Shown: piece by piece, positions 13,356-53,940 of the stretch
How positions within the stretch are numbered: the stretch's first letter is position 1
Layout: the number at the start of each line of letters is the position of its first letter
From: Eledone cirrhosa
Lineage: Eukaryota
Assembly: GCA_964016885.1 (NCBI GenBank)
Contig: OZ024740.1
Coordinates: 374,666,001 to 374,730,000 of the forward strand
Direction: 5' to 3'
DNA: 64,000 bases
Program-made: the position numbers and the translations under genes
The notes under the pieces: model-generated
Database searches by the model: none
Seen by the model: the letters and a program-made list of their open reading frames with translations, nothing else
Told to the model about the DNA's origin: nothing

Positions 13356-13583
13356 ATCTCTCTCTCACTCTCTCTCACTCTGTCTCACTCTCCCTCTCTG
13401 TATATATATATATATATATATATATATATATATATATATATATATATATATATATAAATGTATATATAATGTATTTTGCAATAGACACTATGCTTAATTA
13501 AAAGCATTTTGAAGACAGTATGCTATTGTTTTAGAGTAGTGACATATTCACTTACTTTAATCTCAGCAAGCAGGGGGAGATAA

Positions 13584-13628
13584 ACGCGACAAGGCCTTGT
13601 TTCTGCATTTGTTATGCTTATCAAGGCT
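13584..13628 (-). ncRNA. Hammerhead motif, U3-A8 variant
   Basis: Reverse complement: agcc|ttgataa|gcat aacaa atgc a|gaaac aaggcctt gtc|gcgt; palindromic stem III acaaggccttgt; stem I imperfect. Confidence 0.65.
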
Positions 13629-13767
13629 AACTACTCCCTCCCGTCTACTGAGATCGCTGATGTTATATTCTTATAGGCAACCGCTCTGTATAATCAGTTC
13701 TTTATTATTTACTAGAATGCAATAAGAATATAACATCAGCGATCTCAGTAGACGGGAGGGAGTAGTT

Positions 13768-13814
13768 AGCCCTGATAAGCATAAAAAACATGTAGAAACA
13801 AGGCCTTGTCGGCT
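13768..13814 (+). ncRNA. Hammerhead motif (core ctgataa, C3/A8 mismatch in this copy)
   Basis: agcc|ctgataa|gcat...atgta|gaaac aaggcctt gtc|ggct; stem I agcc/ggct, GUC site. Confidence 0.7.
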
Positions 13815-14114
13815 TTACCTCCCCCTGTTTGCTGAGATTAAAGTAAGTGAGTCTGTCACTACTCTAAAACAATAGCATACGGTCTTCAAAATGCTTTTAA
13901 TTAAGCATAAAGTGTATTGAAAAATACATTATATATACATTCATATATATATGGCTATTTCAGAGGTTCAATTCTAATATATATATATATATACGGCTTA
14001 TTTTAAAAATATCCAATACTAAAGCTACAACTCCATTATCCGGGAGCTTCCAACAGTAATAGTTGCATTATTTAAGCGTATGTCAATATTTATTTATAAA
14101 ACTGATCTATATTA

Positions 14115-14180
14115 TATTTCATCTGATGGAAGCACACCATAATTTAACTTGGTGTCCTTGAAATATGTATAATGAAATAA
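14115..14180 (+). ncRNA. Type I hammerhead motif (A9G deviation)
   Basis: tatttcat|ctgatgg|aag c acacc...ggtgt c ctt|gaaat atgt ata|atgaaata; perfect 8-bp stem I. Confidence 0.75.
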
Positions 14181-14556
14181 ATATCGTTTTATAAATATAG
14201 TTTCCATTTGTTAATATCGTATATATATATATATATATATATATATATATATATATATATATATATATATATATATATATATTCTAATTTATTTGAATTA
14301 TAGAGCCCTCTGCCGCTCATCTCGAATTTTGTTTATCGTGAACTCGTGCGCCGATTTTTCGATACTCGATTATTCTACTATATATATATATATATATATA
14401 TATATATATATATATATGTAACCAAAAGTTAAACAAGGTTTATTGATTAATCAATGCATATAGTTTTACAATAGATTAGAACGACTCAACAAGGAGGTTT
14501 TCTGGATTTATTAATATTAATTCAAAATATTAATAGACATTCATGTAATCAAAATA

Positions 14557-49718: not shown

Positions 49719-51505
49719 ATATATATATATATATATATATATATACATGTATGTATGTATGGATATATAATGAGAGGTACACAAATATATGTGTATACAT
49801 ACATATACATGCATATATACACATACATTTTTCACAAGTATGTGAGATTGTGTGTTGTCGATCTTATCCAGTGTTGCTCTATGATTATGAGAGACAAGAT
49901 AATTGGAATAATTAAATTGACTCTATATCAGAGCTATGTAATATATTATAAAGTAAGAAGATATATTAGACATAAATAAATACCCATTTGTGTGTCTGTG
50001 GGTCTAGAAACGGGCCACTGGGATGTTGGAATGCAGGCTTTTAAATTAGCCATTCTGGTACACTTCTTTCCATTCAATTATTGATCATAGGTTTTAATTG
50101 CCCTACAATGGATGAATGATAATCTCAGTTATATGCCCGTTTCTCCCAAATATCATAATTGAATAATAAATTTGTTCAGCTAGCCCATCTATATTTTGAC
50201 ATGTTCTATTCAGAAAAGAGTAAGTAAAATACTAAGCCTAAATATTACACAATACAGTCCACATTCACGCTAAAGTATGTTACAGCTGACAACCACATGC
50301 GACTATTTCGACCGCTCTGTTTATAAACTACAATGCTACTATTCTTTCCATCTCATTACACCGTGAATAGTTCAATCACTAAATGTCCTAAAACACATAT
50401 TATATATATATATACATGCGTGTATCTGTGTGTGTGTGGGTGTGTGGGTATGTGGGTGTGTATGTATGTGTGTGTGTGTGTGTGTATATATATATATATA
50501 TATATATATATATATATATATATATATCGAACCGTTGTACAAGTTATGAAATTAGAATGTATATTACCATAATGTTGACACCTTCAATGCACGGTTTCAC
50601 TATGAAATATGGTATTAGTTCGGAATATAAGCCCAGTTCTGAATATCCCGTTTATTTTCAATCTAATTCAATAAGAATACATTGTCTAAAGTATGTTTCC
50701 TTTCTTTTTATGGAGGTTTTGGCTGCTATATCTAACAGATATAATATCATTCTATAGGATCAATTTGGCTTATTGCCAACGATAATTTAATAATAACGAT
50801 AAACATATTTTCACTTGATATTTTAATTAGTGAAATAAATTGTGTTATGCCAAAAATTCCAAGGAATTACCTTTCAAAAATATCATATAAAAATTCTGTC
50901 AAAATATATGATACGTATATGACGAATTTTGGTAATTGCCAAAATATTTCATTAATTTATTCTCGAAGGTAATAATTTCCGATTTTATTTTATTAAAAAT
51001 CAATAAACTATTTAAAGTTTATGTATCACAATCTCTATATTACAAACTATATTGATTCAAGTAATGTTAATAGTGAAAATAATATATCAATATAGTATTT
51101 TGAAAGGACATAAAGATGGACATGTATAACGTTTTATGTATGAGATAGCTTCATATCAGCGCAACGTGCCAAATTTGTAAAACTTGTATATATTAAGAAT
51201 TTTCAAATCCCAATATTCATTATAGGTACGTACATATGTTTATATGTGTATATGTATTGGTAATGAACATGATTACTAAACATAACATTTACAAACTTGG
51301 TATGCTACGGGCATGAATACTATATATATATGTACACAAAAACATACACTCGGACAGACACACACAAAAATGAAACGCACACACACACGCAGACACACAC
51401 ACACACACACACACACATACACAAACACACACACACACATATATATATATATATATATATATATATATTGTTATATTTGGGGAGGGTCATATTTCTAAAT
51501 CAAAC

Positions 51506-52609
51506 TTGTTTGATTTAGAACGTAGCACGATGGAAAGCATCCAGCAGATAGCTAATTCCATACACCAGAGTATAACTGTAACTATAGACTTCCCTTCCAA
51601 ACACCCTAACAATAGACTACCTGTATTAGACACAGAACTCTGGATTAACACTATAGACGAGAGAGCCCAAATTCTCCACTCACACTATGCTAAACCCATG
51701 GCCTCCAAATACCTGATACTCAAAAACTCAGCAATGTCCAGTAGTGCTAAGTTTAATATTCTGATCGCAGATTTGGTACGAGTGATGAAGAATGTGTCCA
51801 GCATGTGCGACCCAACAGAAATGGAAGGACACATCCAACACTTCATCAACCGCATGCAGTTCTCTGGCTACAACCAAAGAGACAGAGTCAGAGTATACGA
51901 AGGAGCCATGGAAAAGTATAAGACCCTCATAGAACTGGACATGAAAGGAATTTGCCCACTATACAGGAGCAAATCATGGAATAGCTTAGATAGGGCTAGA
52001 CATAAGATAGGGAAGGCCACATCATGGTACGACAACCAGAGATATCAGAGTGTCATGTTTGTGGACGCCACCCCTGGAGGGAAATTAGCTAACCAGTGTA
52101 GAAAGGCCCTGAGAAAGACCCACTTAAAAATAAAGGTGGTAGAAAAGCCAGGAACCACCATAAAATCCCTGATCAGCAAAACCTACCCTTTTAAGAAAAC
52201 CCACTGTACCAATAGGAAATGTATCATATGTAAGGTGAACCCCTGGATAAACTGTAAGACTAGAAACGTAGTCTATAGCATAAGATGTACAGAGGGTACT
52301 TGCAGAAACACGACAACAACATACATAGGTGAGACAGCTCGTAGCATAGGTGAAAGGATAGACCAACACTGGGGGGAACTAAAAGGACGAAAAAACGGGT
52401 CAGTACTATACGAACATGCTAGACAACAACATGACGGTAACATAGACAACATAGAAATTAGAATAATATCTAAACATAGGAATGACCCAGCAGATAGGCA
52501 AATCAGAGAGGCCAGTGAAATAGAAATTAGAAGACCAAAGCTAAACAGAAAGAATGAGTGGAACAACAACAACACCCAAACAAACAACACTGACCTAAGA
52601 GAAGTATAA
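51506..52609 (+). CDS. PLE RT thumb + Cys-rich linker + GIY-YIG endonuclease (uninterrupted, 5'-truncated)
   Basis: 367 aa; LPVLDTELW, HYAKPMAS, CTNRKCIIC..C, NVVYSIRC..YIGETAR..ERIDQH, RQIREA, PKLN. Confidence 0.88.
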   Translation: MFDLERSTMESIQQIANSIHQSITVTIDFPSKHPNNRLPVLDTELWINTIDERAQILHSHYAKPMASKYLILKNSAMSSSAKFNILIADLVRVMKNVSSMCDPTEMEGHIQHFINRMQFSGYNQRDRVRVYEGAMEKYKTLIELDMKGICPLYRSKSWNSLDRARHKIGKATSWYDNQRYQSVMFVDATPGGKLANQCRKALRKTHLKIKVVEKPGTTIKSLISKTYPFKKTHCTNRKCIICKVNPWINCKTRNVVYSIRCTEGTCRNTTTTYIGETARSIGERIDQHWGELKGRKNGSVLYEHARQQHDGNIDNIEIRIISKHRNDPADRQIREASEIEIRRPKLNRKNEWNNNNTQTNNTDLREV

Positions 52610-52876
52610 ATAAATAAGTAAATTAAATAAAATAAAATAAGATAAATAAATACATACACAAGCACATAAACACACACTAGTCACCCAGCAGACACAACAC
52701 TATACACACTAGTCACACATCACACATAACACTATACACACACGCAAACGCATGCGCAAAGAAGACAAAATAAAATAAGATAAACAAACAAGCAAATAAA
52801 TAAATGAATATATAGACAGACTGAACAAAAAAAAATGGCGTAGACATACAACACAACAGGAGGAACAATGAATATA

Positions 52877-52920
52877 ACACCACTGACGATGTTGCAGATG
52901 TGCAACGAAAGATTTATGTA
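52877..52920 (+). ncRNA. Minimal PLE-type hammerhead in the 3' pLTR
   Basis: ca|ctgacga t|gttgca gatg tgcaac|gaaa gat tta|tg; stem I weak; about 275 nt after the stop, matching the position of the 27478 motif. Confidence 0.7.
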
Positions 52921-53229
52921 AATTATGTAAACTATATATATATGTGTTTGTCTATATTGTATCTGTATTATTTTTGACCGCCGGTCAGTCAATGGCAACA
53001 TTGAGGACCGAGTAAGTTAGATCGCAGATATATATATATAAAAGACAGTGAGATGCGAAAACCAACCAAACAGTGAGTGTGTTCTGTTATTAATTCTGGC
53101 AATATTACGCAAATATGACCCTCCCCAAATATAACAATATCTGTTTCGACACACGATTTCATATAAAAAACCTCGCAAAACTAATTCATCGCCGCTATAT
53201 ATATATATATATATATATATATATATATA

Positions 53230-53940
53230 TATATATATATGAATGTATATATATAGTGTATTTTGCAATACACTTTTGCTTAATTAAAAGCATTTTGAAG
53301 ACCATATGCTATTGTTTTAAAGTAGTGACAGACTCACTTACTTTAATTTCAGCAAACAGGGGAGATAAAGCTGACAAGGCCTTGTTTCTGCATTTATTGG
53401 TGGTTATCAAAGCCAAATACTCCTCCCGTTCGCTGATTATTACGGATGTTATGTTCTTATAAAATTCTAGTAAATAATTAGGAACTGATTATACAGAGCG
53501 GTTGCCGGTCAGGCAGAAATCAAAAATTGGAATTTGTGCTCTGAAATAGCCATATATATATGAATGTATATATATACATCCATATATATATGGCTATTTC
53601 AGAGCACCAATTCCATTTTATAATTTCTGCCTGTCCGGCAACCGCTCTGTATAATCAGTTCCTGATTATTTACTAGAATTCTATAAGAACATAACATTCG
53701 TAATTTCATCGAACGGGAGGAGTAGTTGGCTTTGATAAAGATCAATAAATGCAGAAACAAGGCCATGTCAGCTTTATCTCTCCCTGTTTACTGAAATTGA
53801 AGTAAGTGAGTCTGACAGTACTTTAAAACAATAGCATACGTTCTTCAAAATGCTTTTAATTAAGCAAAAGCGTATTGCAAAATATACTATATATACATTC
53901 ATATATATATGGTTATTTCAGAGCACCAATTCCAATTTGT
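53230..53940. mobile_element. Fold-back of two complete ~320-bp HHR-bearing units
   Basis: The arms are reverse complements about ~53578. Internal period ~320 (gaatgtatata at 53241 and 53562; atttcagagcaccaattcc at 53596 and 53915). HHRs at 53369-53414 (-) and 53728-53773 (+). Confidence 0.88.
53728..53773 (+). ncRNA. Hammerhead motif, U3-A8 variant
   Basis: ggct|ttgataa|agatcaataaatgca|gaaac aaggccat gtc|agct; stem II decayed. The mirror copy has the perfect palindrome acaaggccttgt. Confidence 0.62.

Follow-up and report, generated by a model that had tools for sequence, protein, structure and literature searches.

The units repeated at four loci of the Eledone cirrhosa window (the whole 64,000-nt stretch analysed) are very probably non-LTR retrozymes: non-coding units of 314–339 nt with one type I hammerhead ribozyme (HHR) each, mobilized by Penelope-like elements (PLEs) in a PLE-rich animal genome. 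The assignment is made because the units are tandem, carry one HHR each and hold no open reading frame (ORF) over 61 codons, and because the helix III palindromes are stable only as duplexes and the folds of two families, B and C, beat those of shuffled sequences. Mobilization by PLEs is suggested by the inverted arms, one-end tails and TA flanks of the copies and by a solo tail at 5806. The retrozyme–PLE link was proposed in PMC7229834 and 10.64898/2026.07.22.740005, where it is argued from coexistence and sequence trees. Both the retrozyme class and the U3-A8 core variant are already known and will not surprise a specialist; what these units add is the PLE footprint carried by the retrozyme copies themselves.

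Ten HHR arms were found over the four loci, each with a palindromic helix III, in three families: A (13.5- and 53.2-kb loci), B (31.4 kb) and C (49.1 kb). The periods are 314 nt in B (TRF: 2.6 copies, 95%), 319 nt in A (53592 to 53911) and 339 nt in C (49217 to 49556). They agree with the units of about 315–340 nt described in an earlier sequence-only reading of this DNA, except that the 13.5-kb arms are cut short. The inverted, 5'-truncated arm at that locus (13455..13676, minus strand, 222 nt; core UUGAUAA, position 3 at 13624; predicted cut after 13588) has a mispaired stem I and no tail, its 3' end lying in (TA)n at the first stop. At the junction it shares a single G with the forward, 5'-truncated arm (13676..13978, plus strand, 303 nt; core CUGAUAA at 13772, C3.A8; predicted cut after 13810), which holds a double hairpin at 13891-13929, a TA-rich hairpin at 13930-13949 and a tail at 13953-13978, followed by (TA)n. 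At the other A locus, an inverted arm about 25 nt longer than one unit (53231..53574, minus strand; core UUGAUAA at 53410; predicted cut after 53373) has a decayed stem II and a 3' end without a tail. The forward arm beside it, one 319-nt unit plus about 55 nt (53569..53943, plus strand; core UUGAUAA at 53732; predicted cut after 53769), has an extra A at 53753 and a tail at 53911-53940 that runs into (TA)n.

Family B consists of an inverted arm (31409..31686, minus strand; core CUGAUGA at 31582; predicted cut after 31549), with partly decayed stems and its end in (TA)n, and a head-to-tail array of 2.6 units of 314 nt (31685..32494, plus strand). The cores of the array lie at 31704, 32018 and 32332, with predicted cuts after 31737, 32051 and 32365 at the triplets GUA, GUU and GUU, respectively. 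Family C comprises 1.7 units of 339 nt between TA runs, without an inverted arm (49140..49718, plus strand); its cores are at 49217 (intact) and 49556 (G12 changed to C), with predicted cuts after 49248 and 49587. The core assignments of the sequence-only reading held in every arm, with CUGAUGA in all six arms at 31.4 and 49.1 kb (31582-, 31704, 32018, 32332, 49217, 49556), UUGAUAA in three of the four at 13.5 and 53.2 kb (13624-, 53410-, 53732) and CUGAUAA at 13772; the three helix III strings it quoted were also as claimed. Outside its coordinates, a solo tail of A between TA runs (5806..5825, plus strand) represents extreme 5' truncation. A is a dispersed multi-copy family: 1631 and 1788 contigs and 5704 and 4477 reads aligned to one A unit at 80% likeness, counts that do not represent copy number.

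An ORF search of doubled units returned nothing longer than 61 codons. No RT or GIY-YIG ORF was found in the units, which therefore do not qualify as autonomous PLEs, and no LTR layout was seen at the four loci. Regional GC is 0.34–0.37. ORF fragments with published PLE motifs (RWR, DKT, CxCx5C, Cx4CxxC and GIY-YIG-like) fill the window and are putatively labelled as PLE on that motif reading; Pfam named 0 of 13 PLE-like fragments, PHROGs 0 of 6 by function and PDB none of the neighbouring ORFs, and none of the 35 homologues of the 51.5-kb ORF has an informative name. One truncated PLE-like element (51465..53195, plus strand), context and not a family member, has the same layout as the units: a TA run, an inverted 30-bp 3' piece, a forward copy with an HHR at 52883, an extension of about 55 nt and a TA run.

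With such an end layout next door, the units could be merely the 5'-truncated pseudo-LTR ends of autonomous PLEs and not independent non-autonomous families. Most minimal HHRs are truncated PLEs according to PMC4209133, some of them on opposite strands 100–700 bp apart, and in A far more reads cover the 3' modules than the HHR, the pattern expected from 5' truncation. Nevertheless, the exact head-to-tail periods (314, 319 and 339) and the continuation of the tail into the unit start argue against truncation, as does the lack of any ORF remnant joined to an arm. Two further points weigh the same way: depth also peaks at 53636-53668, upstream of the HHR, and stem I is extended and has an internal loop, which resembles canonical and not minimal HHRs. 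We consider this explanation improbable. A point against the retrozyme–PLE reading, by contrast, is that comparison of the units with the HHR-bearing 3' regions of six other window elements detected no homology outside the HHR (18 comparisons, z -1.2 to 2.5) and blastn against the other HHR-bearing elements in the window was negative, so that no helper PLE emerged from the window.

In the type I HHR core, YUGANRA ... GAAA ... UH with a 3-8 pair, the nine invariant positions showed one mismatch in 90 over the ten arms, and positions 3 and 8 form a Watson–Crick pair in nine of ten. A strict HHR descriptor matched the window four times, three of these being arms described here, against 0.15±0.38 in 100 shuffles; a relaxed descriptor gave 11 matches against 2.99±1.76 (maximum 9) in 200 shuffles. 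Stems I–III had been described as differing in sequence yet still pairing. This was true of the five arms that passed the relaxed descriptor, but the other five failed it, which counts against the retrozyme reading: neither 53-kb arm keeps an intact stem II, and stem I is disrupted in the 13624- arm. In B, the basal pair of stem II is a U.U mismatch. In one feature expected of non-LTR retrozymes, B (31704, 32018, 32332) agreed with the class, and C (C at G12 in 49556) and A, within the window, did not. Rfam found no HHR among 143 matches at E<=1 in the whole window, and for 31400-32500 alone the best match was HH9 (14.9 bits, E 2.3, below the gathering threshold of 52); this shortfall weakens membership of an Rfam family, not the HHR motif. 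The Rfam miRNA matches in the window were rejected as TA/CA microsatellite artefacts below gathering.

Helix III alone formed no hairpin in four of four tested cases (0.0 kcal/mol) and was computed to pair only with a second copy (-19.5, -19.5, -6.9 and -3.9 kcal/mol); that of A is a perfect 12-nt palindrome. Monomer folds beat shuffles in B (z -2.82) and C (z -4.44), whereas that of A53R did not reach significance (z -1.39), a point against the retrozyme reading. The size of the units, their HHR and the high diversity of subfamilies would also suit integrated copies of a viroid-like RNA, for which PMC4209133 raises RNA-to-RNA steps as a possibility. Such an origin is very unlikely: the HHR lies on one strand of the unit only, so ribozymes in both polarities are lacking, the monomer folds are branched and not rod-like, and the ends are typical of target-primed reverse transcription. 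The earlier word "replicon" was accordingly too strong, as the ends indicate a non-autonomous retroelement that relies on a PLE RT/endonuclease for copying, and no sign of RNA-to-RNA replication was seen.

The four loci had been said to share sequence and order as one superfamily. A and B are homologous over the full unit, and for them the claim is firm. For C it relies on the core and one block of about 55 nt downstream. C showed no detectable homology with A/B upstream of the HHR (8/8 pairs, z<=-0.2) or at +50..+100 (8/8 pairs, z<=0.5), and only the block aligned (z 1.8–7.0); a held-out covariance model gave E 3e-5 and 0.004.

The block follows the HHR in all ten arms, as had been read from the letters. 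An example copy lies at 13872..13930 (plus strand); the others are at 13468-13526-, 31435-31492-, 31798, 32112, 32426, 49311, 49651, 53255-53312- and 53831. The TA-rich tract reported after the block was recovered as a hairpin motif in the A and B arms but not in C. A two-hairpin model left 94.5% of cells paired, with double, compensatory changes at 4 of 13 pairs, and RNAalifold returned the same structure; a single bulged stem-loop fitted worse (86.4% paired, outer helix 76.7%). The covariation score was reached by 0/500 shuffles of a pair-shuffle control that ignores relatedness, with the structure drawn from the same sequences. The block is a candidate recognition element for the mobilizing RT. 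Its pattern had no match in metagenome contigs or in viral contigs, and Pol III box A/B patterns gave one minus-strand match in three units, at chance level.

Core columns varied in 2/33 cases against 117/498 elsewhere (Fisher p=0.011; B31_3 left out as a near-copy). Because core columns vary less and the downstream hairpins show compensatory changes, sequence comparison supports the earlier proposal that selection acted on RNA structure while a non-coding family diversified. The same constraint and the compensatory changes between families argue against ordinary satellite DNA grown locally by unequal exchange, with the HHRs as inert relics. Units 2 and 3 of B are 98% identical, local amplification is discussed in 10.64898/2026.07.22.740005 and stems are broken in many arms, all as a satellite would have it; the inverted arms, the solo tail and the scattered short insertions whose ends are defined and lie in TA runs are not, and we find this origin extremely unlikely.

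The covariation claimed at positions 3 and 8 is present as a switch from C3-G8 to U3-A8, though, on the arms compared, it is a single event on the branch to A; being confined to one branch, it cannot be scored statistically across subfamilies here. Nor is it a novelty, natural U3-A8 having been published (PMC3088659; PMC4209133). The C3.A8 at 13772 is a later change in one copy. A also has an extra A between C11.1 and G12 in 4/4 arms, and these two core departures count against the retrozyme reading. In A, the reads have G-C again where stem II begins (A>G at 53739 in 114/117 and 98/104 X4 reads). The extra A at 53753 was absent from 92/196 and 85/216 RAD reads (18 and 20 starts) and from less than 1% of contig depth (12.9 of 2276; 19.2 of 5132). 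Neither 53732 nor 53737 (positions 3 and 8) is among the 40 substitutions listed for A copies; a minority of copies may have C3-G8.

The switch may have been captured as a module. A separate U3-A8 HHR of family F (54204..54234, plus strand), with a decayed homologue at about 43088-43128 (minus strand) about 480 nt beyond the end of a GIY-YIG-type ORF, matches A in core and stem II. It is conceivable, if somewhat doubtful, that A took both from such a PLE hammerhead (F/G), for example by RT template switching, and did not acquire two compensating point mutations in place. A13L agrees with the 54204 HHR in 24/27 columns from position 3 to 15.2 (hand count) and is closer to it than to its sister B; domain II scores, obtained without a shuffle control, were 8.0 for A13L-F, 5.5 for A13L-G and -3.0 each for A13L-B and A13L-C. 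The flanks of A are B-like (z 5–29) and unlike F/G (z<0), and U3-A8 occurs in both F and G. On the other hand, 12 of the letters that agree belong to the constrained core, and domain II is a short, A-rich stretch with half its letters dictated by pairing. The helix III palindromes are unlike (12 nt against 6 nt), and the U.U flanks of F are missing from A, which has an A. Convergence on a stem II suited to a U3-A8 core is also possible.

The ends of the units carry the marks listed for PLEs in PMC8557442, namely an inverted 5'-truncated copy, a 30–40-bp tail at one end and microsatellite targets. They lie in (TA)n, three of the four loci have an inverted arm (C lacks one), some copies are longer than one unit, and two 3' stops 20–27 nt apart mark off a tail; at the 13.5- and 53.2-kb loci it is carried by the right end alone. 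The tail runs back into the unit start in both 53-kb arms and in reads. In two other samples, reads cross from unit sequence to (AT)n at two positions, 53910 (438 and 355 reads) and 53930 (387 and 366), and some molecules also end at 53937. Contigs contain joints going back 314 as well as opposite-strand joints. These copies are a fairly direct sign of PLEs moving retrozymes.

For retrozymes mobilized in this way, a tandem locus would yield a multimeric transcript, in which two HHRs would pair through palindromic helix III (a pairing computed here) and excise a monomer, as PMC7229834 suggests; a host ligase may circularize it. A PLE RT/GIY-YIG protein would bind this RNA, probably at the conserved 3' hairpins, and nick (TA)n DNA, and cDNA synthesis would begin at either of two internal sites separated by the length of the tail; the two 3' stops are observed and the mechanism is that of PMC11167929. 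Copying of a multimer or circle would account for copies that exceed one unit yet stay exactly in register, and beside the first a further copy, in many cases 5'-truncated, would be inserted in inverse orientation, as in the structures observed. As the subfamilies diverge, selection for core and hairpins would act on the RNA while it propagates, and copies would decay once inserted; U3-A8 would have arisen or been acquired once, on the branch to A. Against this, only 1/9 tested retrozyme dimers cleaved (10.64898/2026.07.22.740005), and in one PLE HHR cleavage was dispensable for insertion in vitro.

A more specific proposal is speculative: that the PLE RT copied circular retrozyme RNA past one turn, guided by the covarying double hairpin just upstream of the two start sites, and that A is a chimera with core and stem II from an autonomous PLE hammerhead, its 12-bp dimer helix III compensating for the weaker core. 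If true, it would supply a defined cis-element with which to probe the proposed retrozyme–PLE partnership, and an example of a parasite and its helper exchanging a ribozyme module. What the copies single out, a short structured element and two start sites, is within reach of the existing in vitro PLE assay, and A offers a natural case for the tolerance of two core departures by a dimeric hammerhead.

Animal non-LTR retrozymes (Cervera and de la Pena 2020, PMC7229834; Li, Clavereau and Pollet 2026, 10.64898/2026.07.22.740005) are likewise non-coding tandem units, of 150–450 bp, each with a single type I HHR, and occur as several families in one genome together with PLEs; their GC lies under 50%, as does the regional GC here; axolotl HHR_Amex2 has U.U at the base of helix II, as in B. 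The inverted arms, two-stop tail and (TA)n targets visible here are not described for retrozymes in the excerpts of these papers, and A differs in its perfect 12-nt palindromic helix III, U3-A8 and the extra A before G12. PLE pseudo-LTR hammerheads (Cervera and de la Pena 2014, PMC4209133) share the palindromic helix III for dimeric folding, the U3-A8 variant (about 1,300 matches in Schistosoma mansoni), opposite-strand pairs 100–700 bp apart and many diverged families per genome. In their consensus, one nucleotide separates 9 from 10.1 and helix II is 7–8 bp long, whereas A–C have a helix II of 3–4 bp and an extended stem I, and the present units have no attached RT-EN ORF. Among natural core variants (Perreault et al. 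2011, PMC3088659), C3-G8 to U3-A8 was reported active in vitro and a U10.1-U11.1 mismatch was tolerated; the insertion variants excerpted there are A6a, U13a and 2a/2b, and one between 11.1 and G12 is not among them. PLE insertions (Craig et al. 2021, PMC8557442; Frangieh et al. 2024, PMC11167929) share 5' truncation, partial tandems, an inverted copy at the 5' end, a one-end tail (30–40 nt in published PLEs, about 20–30 nt here), (TA)n or AT-rich targets and two internal RT start sites. The present units differ from them in encoding no protein and in having these start sites at a TA-rich hairpin and not at an AC-rich stem-loop.

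Hammerhead ribozyme (HHR) cores were read in ten arms of three families: A at 13624 (minus strand), 13772 (plus), 53410 (minus) and 53732 (plus); B at 31582 (minus), 31704, 32018 and 32332 (all plus); and C at 49217 and 49556 (both plus). The unit periods are 319, 314 and 339, respectively. For the core letters and for the strings of helix III, the sequence-only reading was confirmed as written. Its statement that the stems still pair held for five of the ten arms under a relaxed descriptor, but not for the rest, which have decayed stems or, at 49556, a G12 to C change. A strict HHR descriptor matched 4 motifs in the window versus 0.15 per shuffled window. 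The relaxed descriptor, in which positions 3 and 8 may be any letter, matched 11 versus 2.99 in shuffles (maximum 9): six C3-G8, three U3-A8 and two C3-A8, with none of the other 13 combinations. The C3-A8 motifs are at 13772 and 54530, the latter a low-scoring match taken as chance. Rfam called no HHR at threshold and returned HH9 alone, with E 2.3 and a score well under gathering. Other families account for six more HHR-like motifs, three C3-G8 and three U3-A8, at 19541, 21062, 27517 (minus strand), 52883, 54204 and 56520. Those at 27517 and 52883 are 3' of ORFs that resemble those of Penelope-like elements (PLEs) and show, between 9 and 10.1, the nucleotide already published.

Outside the HHR, families A and B align on both sides, with z 8-12 upstream of it and 20-29 downstream (500 shuffles per pair). 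By shuffle z-scores, C showed no alignment with A or B upstream of the HHR or at +50 to +100, and aligned solely at +100 to +165 (z 1.8-7.0). A covariance model of the ~55-nt conserved block downstream of the HHR was built from the eight A and B copies, the C blocks being kept out as a test. The two C blocks ranked directly after the training set, at rough E-values of 3e-5 and 0.0038; the best other match had E 0.093. The block folds as two hairpins, as RNAalifold predicts; 94.5% of 128 cells pair, and both sides are changed in 4 of 13 pairs. The covariation score was reached by none of 500 shuffles, a control that ignores the relatedness of the copies, and the four double changes are single events between the three families. 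Owing to the alignments, the held-out model and the hairpin evidence, the proposed single superfamily is firm for A and B and reasonable for C, which joins through the block. The double hairpin is a candidate reverse transcriptase (RT)-binding element.

A tree of the sequence downstream of the HHR united family A on a single branch (97/100), within which 13772 fell among the U3-A8 arms. The C3-G8/U3-A8 switch was thus one event, and C3-A8 at 13772 a later change in one copy. The covariation at 3-8 suggested from the sequence is therefore present between families, but as a single event and with a variant already in print. Related genomic HHR repeats were already known to differ as U3-A8 versus C3-G8: the available parts of PMC3088659 report natural U3-A8 with in vitro activity, and those of PMC4209133 about 1,300 U3-A8 motifs among Schistosoma PLE-type HHRs. 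Two changes by themselves are unremarkable, since 57 of 166 columns differ between the A and B consensus sequences. That the two changed core positions are the known 3-8 pair, 1 of 55 possible among 11 positions, is telling. Selection on the ribozyme was supported within families, where core columns vary less than the rest (2/33 versus 117/498, p=0.011). U10.1-U11.1, also in family B, is described in the portions seen of PMC3088659 and PMC7229834. An extra A before G12 occurs in all four family A arms, with conflicting frequency among reads; no description of it was found in the parts seen of the cited literature.

Family A may have taken its core and stem II from a PLE hammerhead, a possible but less likely origin for the switch on sequence comparison. 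Of the 27 columns between positions 3 and 15.2, arm 13624 shares 24 with the separate U3-A8 HHR at 54204, although this matched stretch is short and partly constrained. The raw scores for domain II of this arm were 8.0 with 54204, 5.5 with the U3-A8 HHR at 19541 and -3.0 with sister family B. The family A flanks are B-like and unlike the 54204 and 19541 elements, and the 54204 region has a decayed homologue ~480 nt beyond a GIY-YIG-type ORF (43.6 kb).

A single A unit was used to align, at a likeness of 80%, four public DNA data sets (of six listed). Both read sets showed reads leaving the unit for (AT)n at 53910 and at 53930; ends at 53937, joints going back 314 and opposite-strand joints were seen as well. 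Related subfamilies carry other HHR versions, and in one of them a CUGA core follows upstream sequence like that of A. The stem II break at 53739-40 is private to the 53.2 kb copy by reads. At 53664, 1518 and 1040 RAD reads exit the A unit into one identical sequence; this may reflect a single locus, or else a separate derivative with the same upstream block.

At three of the four loci, an inverted and a forward arm meet at their 5' ends. The 3' ends of both face TA runs, except at the right end of 31.4-32.5 kb, where there is only a short AT stretch. Both arms at 13.5 kb are 5'-truncated; both at 53.2 kb exceed one unit, the tail (the terminal piece between two 3' stops) running back into the unit start. 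At these two loci the left arm ends at a TA-rich hairpin and the right arm is 25-30 nt longer. A solo tail lies between TA runs at 5806-5825, and the end layout recurs in a truncated PLE-like element (51465-53195). PMC11167929 accounts for the tail by two internal sites of RT initiation, the tail spanning the interval between them. This anatomy and the read ends are the marks listed for PLE insertions in the part seen of PMC8557442. The inverted-arm loci are long near-perfect palindromes (53231-53910, 13405-13993 and 31406-32198; 76-92%). RNA read through them would form double strands, which could then enter small-RNA silencing.

An AT-rich composition (GC 0.26-0.47) and abundant TA, CA and TC microsatellites mark the window, whose sequence is probably that of an animal. 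ORF fragments of PLE type, matched to published PLE motifs, occupy much of it. Pfam, PHROGs and PDB searches gave no name for these fragments, so the label rests on motif reading. RWR, DKT and CxCx5C motifs at 37-43 and 61-63 kb agree with the description of Hydra-clade PLEs; they belong to a decayed element in partial-tandem and inverted copies (36724-43041 and 60480-63872). Cx4CxxC linkers precede GIY-YIG-like stretches at 28, 44, 52 and 55 kb. The decayed PLE-like ORFs at 43050-46000 (minus) and 55007-55536 (plus), with such a linker and motif, are candidates for the origin of the U3-A8 type of HHR. Two PLE-like elements, at 27330-30600 (minus) and 51465-53195 (plus), are related (69% over 1.2 kb), and a short motif that precedes (TA)n is common to their 3' ends; the latter carries a 30-bp 3' piece, inverted, at its 5' end. 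Also seen were a 994-bp inverted repeat (56628-58815, 89%) of tandem 158- and 186-bp units, palindromic insertions adjoining TA runs (54503-54886, 33680-33830 and 20365-20734), and a repeat family between TA runs with direct and inverted copies (15905-17126 and 19710-20727), the first containing a weak CUGAUGA...GAAA string at 16620.

The units, their periods and ends, and the constraint on core and hairpins are observed; the following cycle is proposed. A multimer would be transcribed from a tandem locus and cleave itself through dimeric HHRs, and a host ligase would circularise the monomer. A PLE protein would then bind the 3' hairpins and nick (TA)n, internal priming would follow, and the RT would copy beyond one unit. 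A linear multimer fits the more-than-unit copies as well as a circle. By computation, helix III pairs only between two copies. Monomer folds were better than shuffles for B and C, but not for the right (forward) family A arm at 53.2 kb. For A and B (e.g. 13766-13815), the monomer consensus fold joins the core box and the cleavage-site strand in an alternative, probably inactive helix that accommodates both U3-A8 and C3-G8. No helper PLE was found among the HHR-bearing elements of the window. Against the mechanism count the decay of half of the arms, the cleavage of only one of nine retrozyme dimers in the part seen of a 2026 preprint (10.64898/2026.07.22.740005) and, from the accessible text of PMC11167929, the dispensability of HHR cleavage for in vitro insertion by one PLE.

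The units were rejected as autonomous PLEs, having no ORF. Nor are they viroid-like replicons by polarity or fold. The contribution of the window lies in PLE insertion marks carried by a retrozyme, in a double hairpin with covariation that an RT may bind, and in the possible capture of a ribozyme module; part of this may already be in print. On testable features the units, known here from DNA alone, fall within the non-LTR retrozymes described in PMC7229834, for which expression as circles is a defining feature. Retrozymes have been proposed, in the portion seen of 10.64898/2026.07.22.740005, as non-autonomous PLE derivatives.
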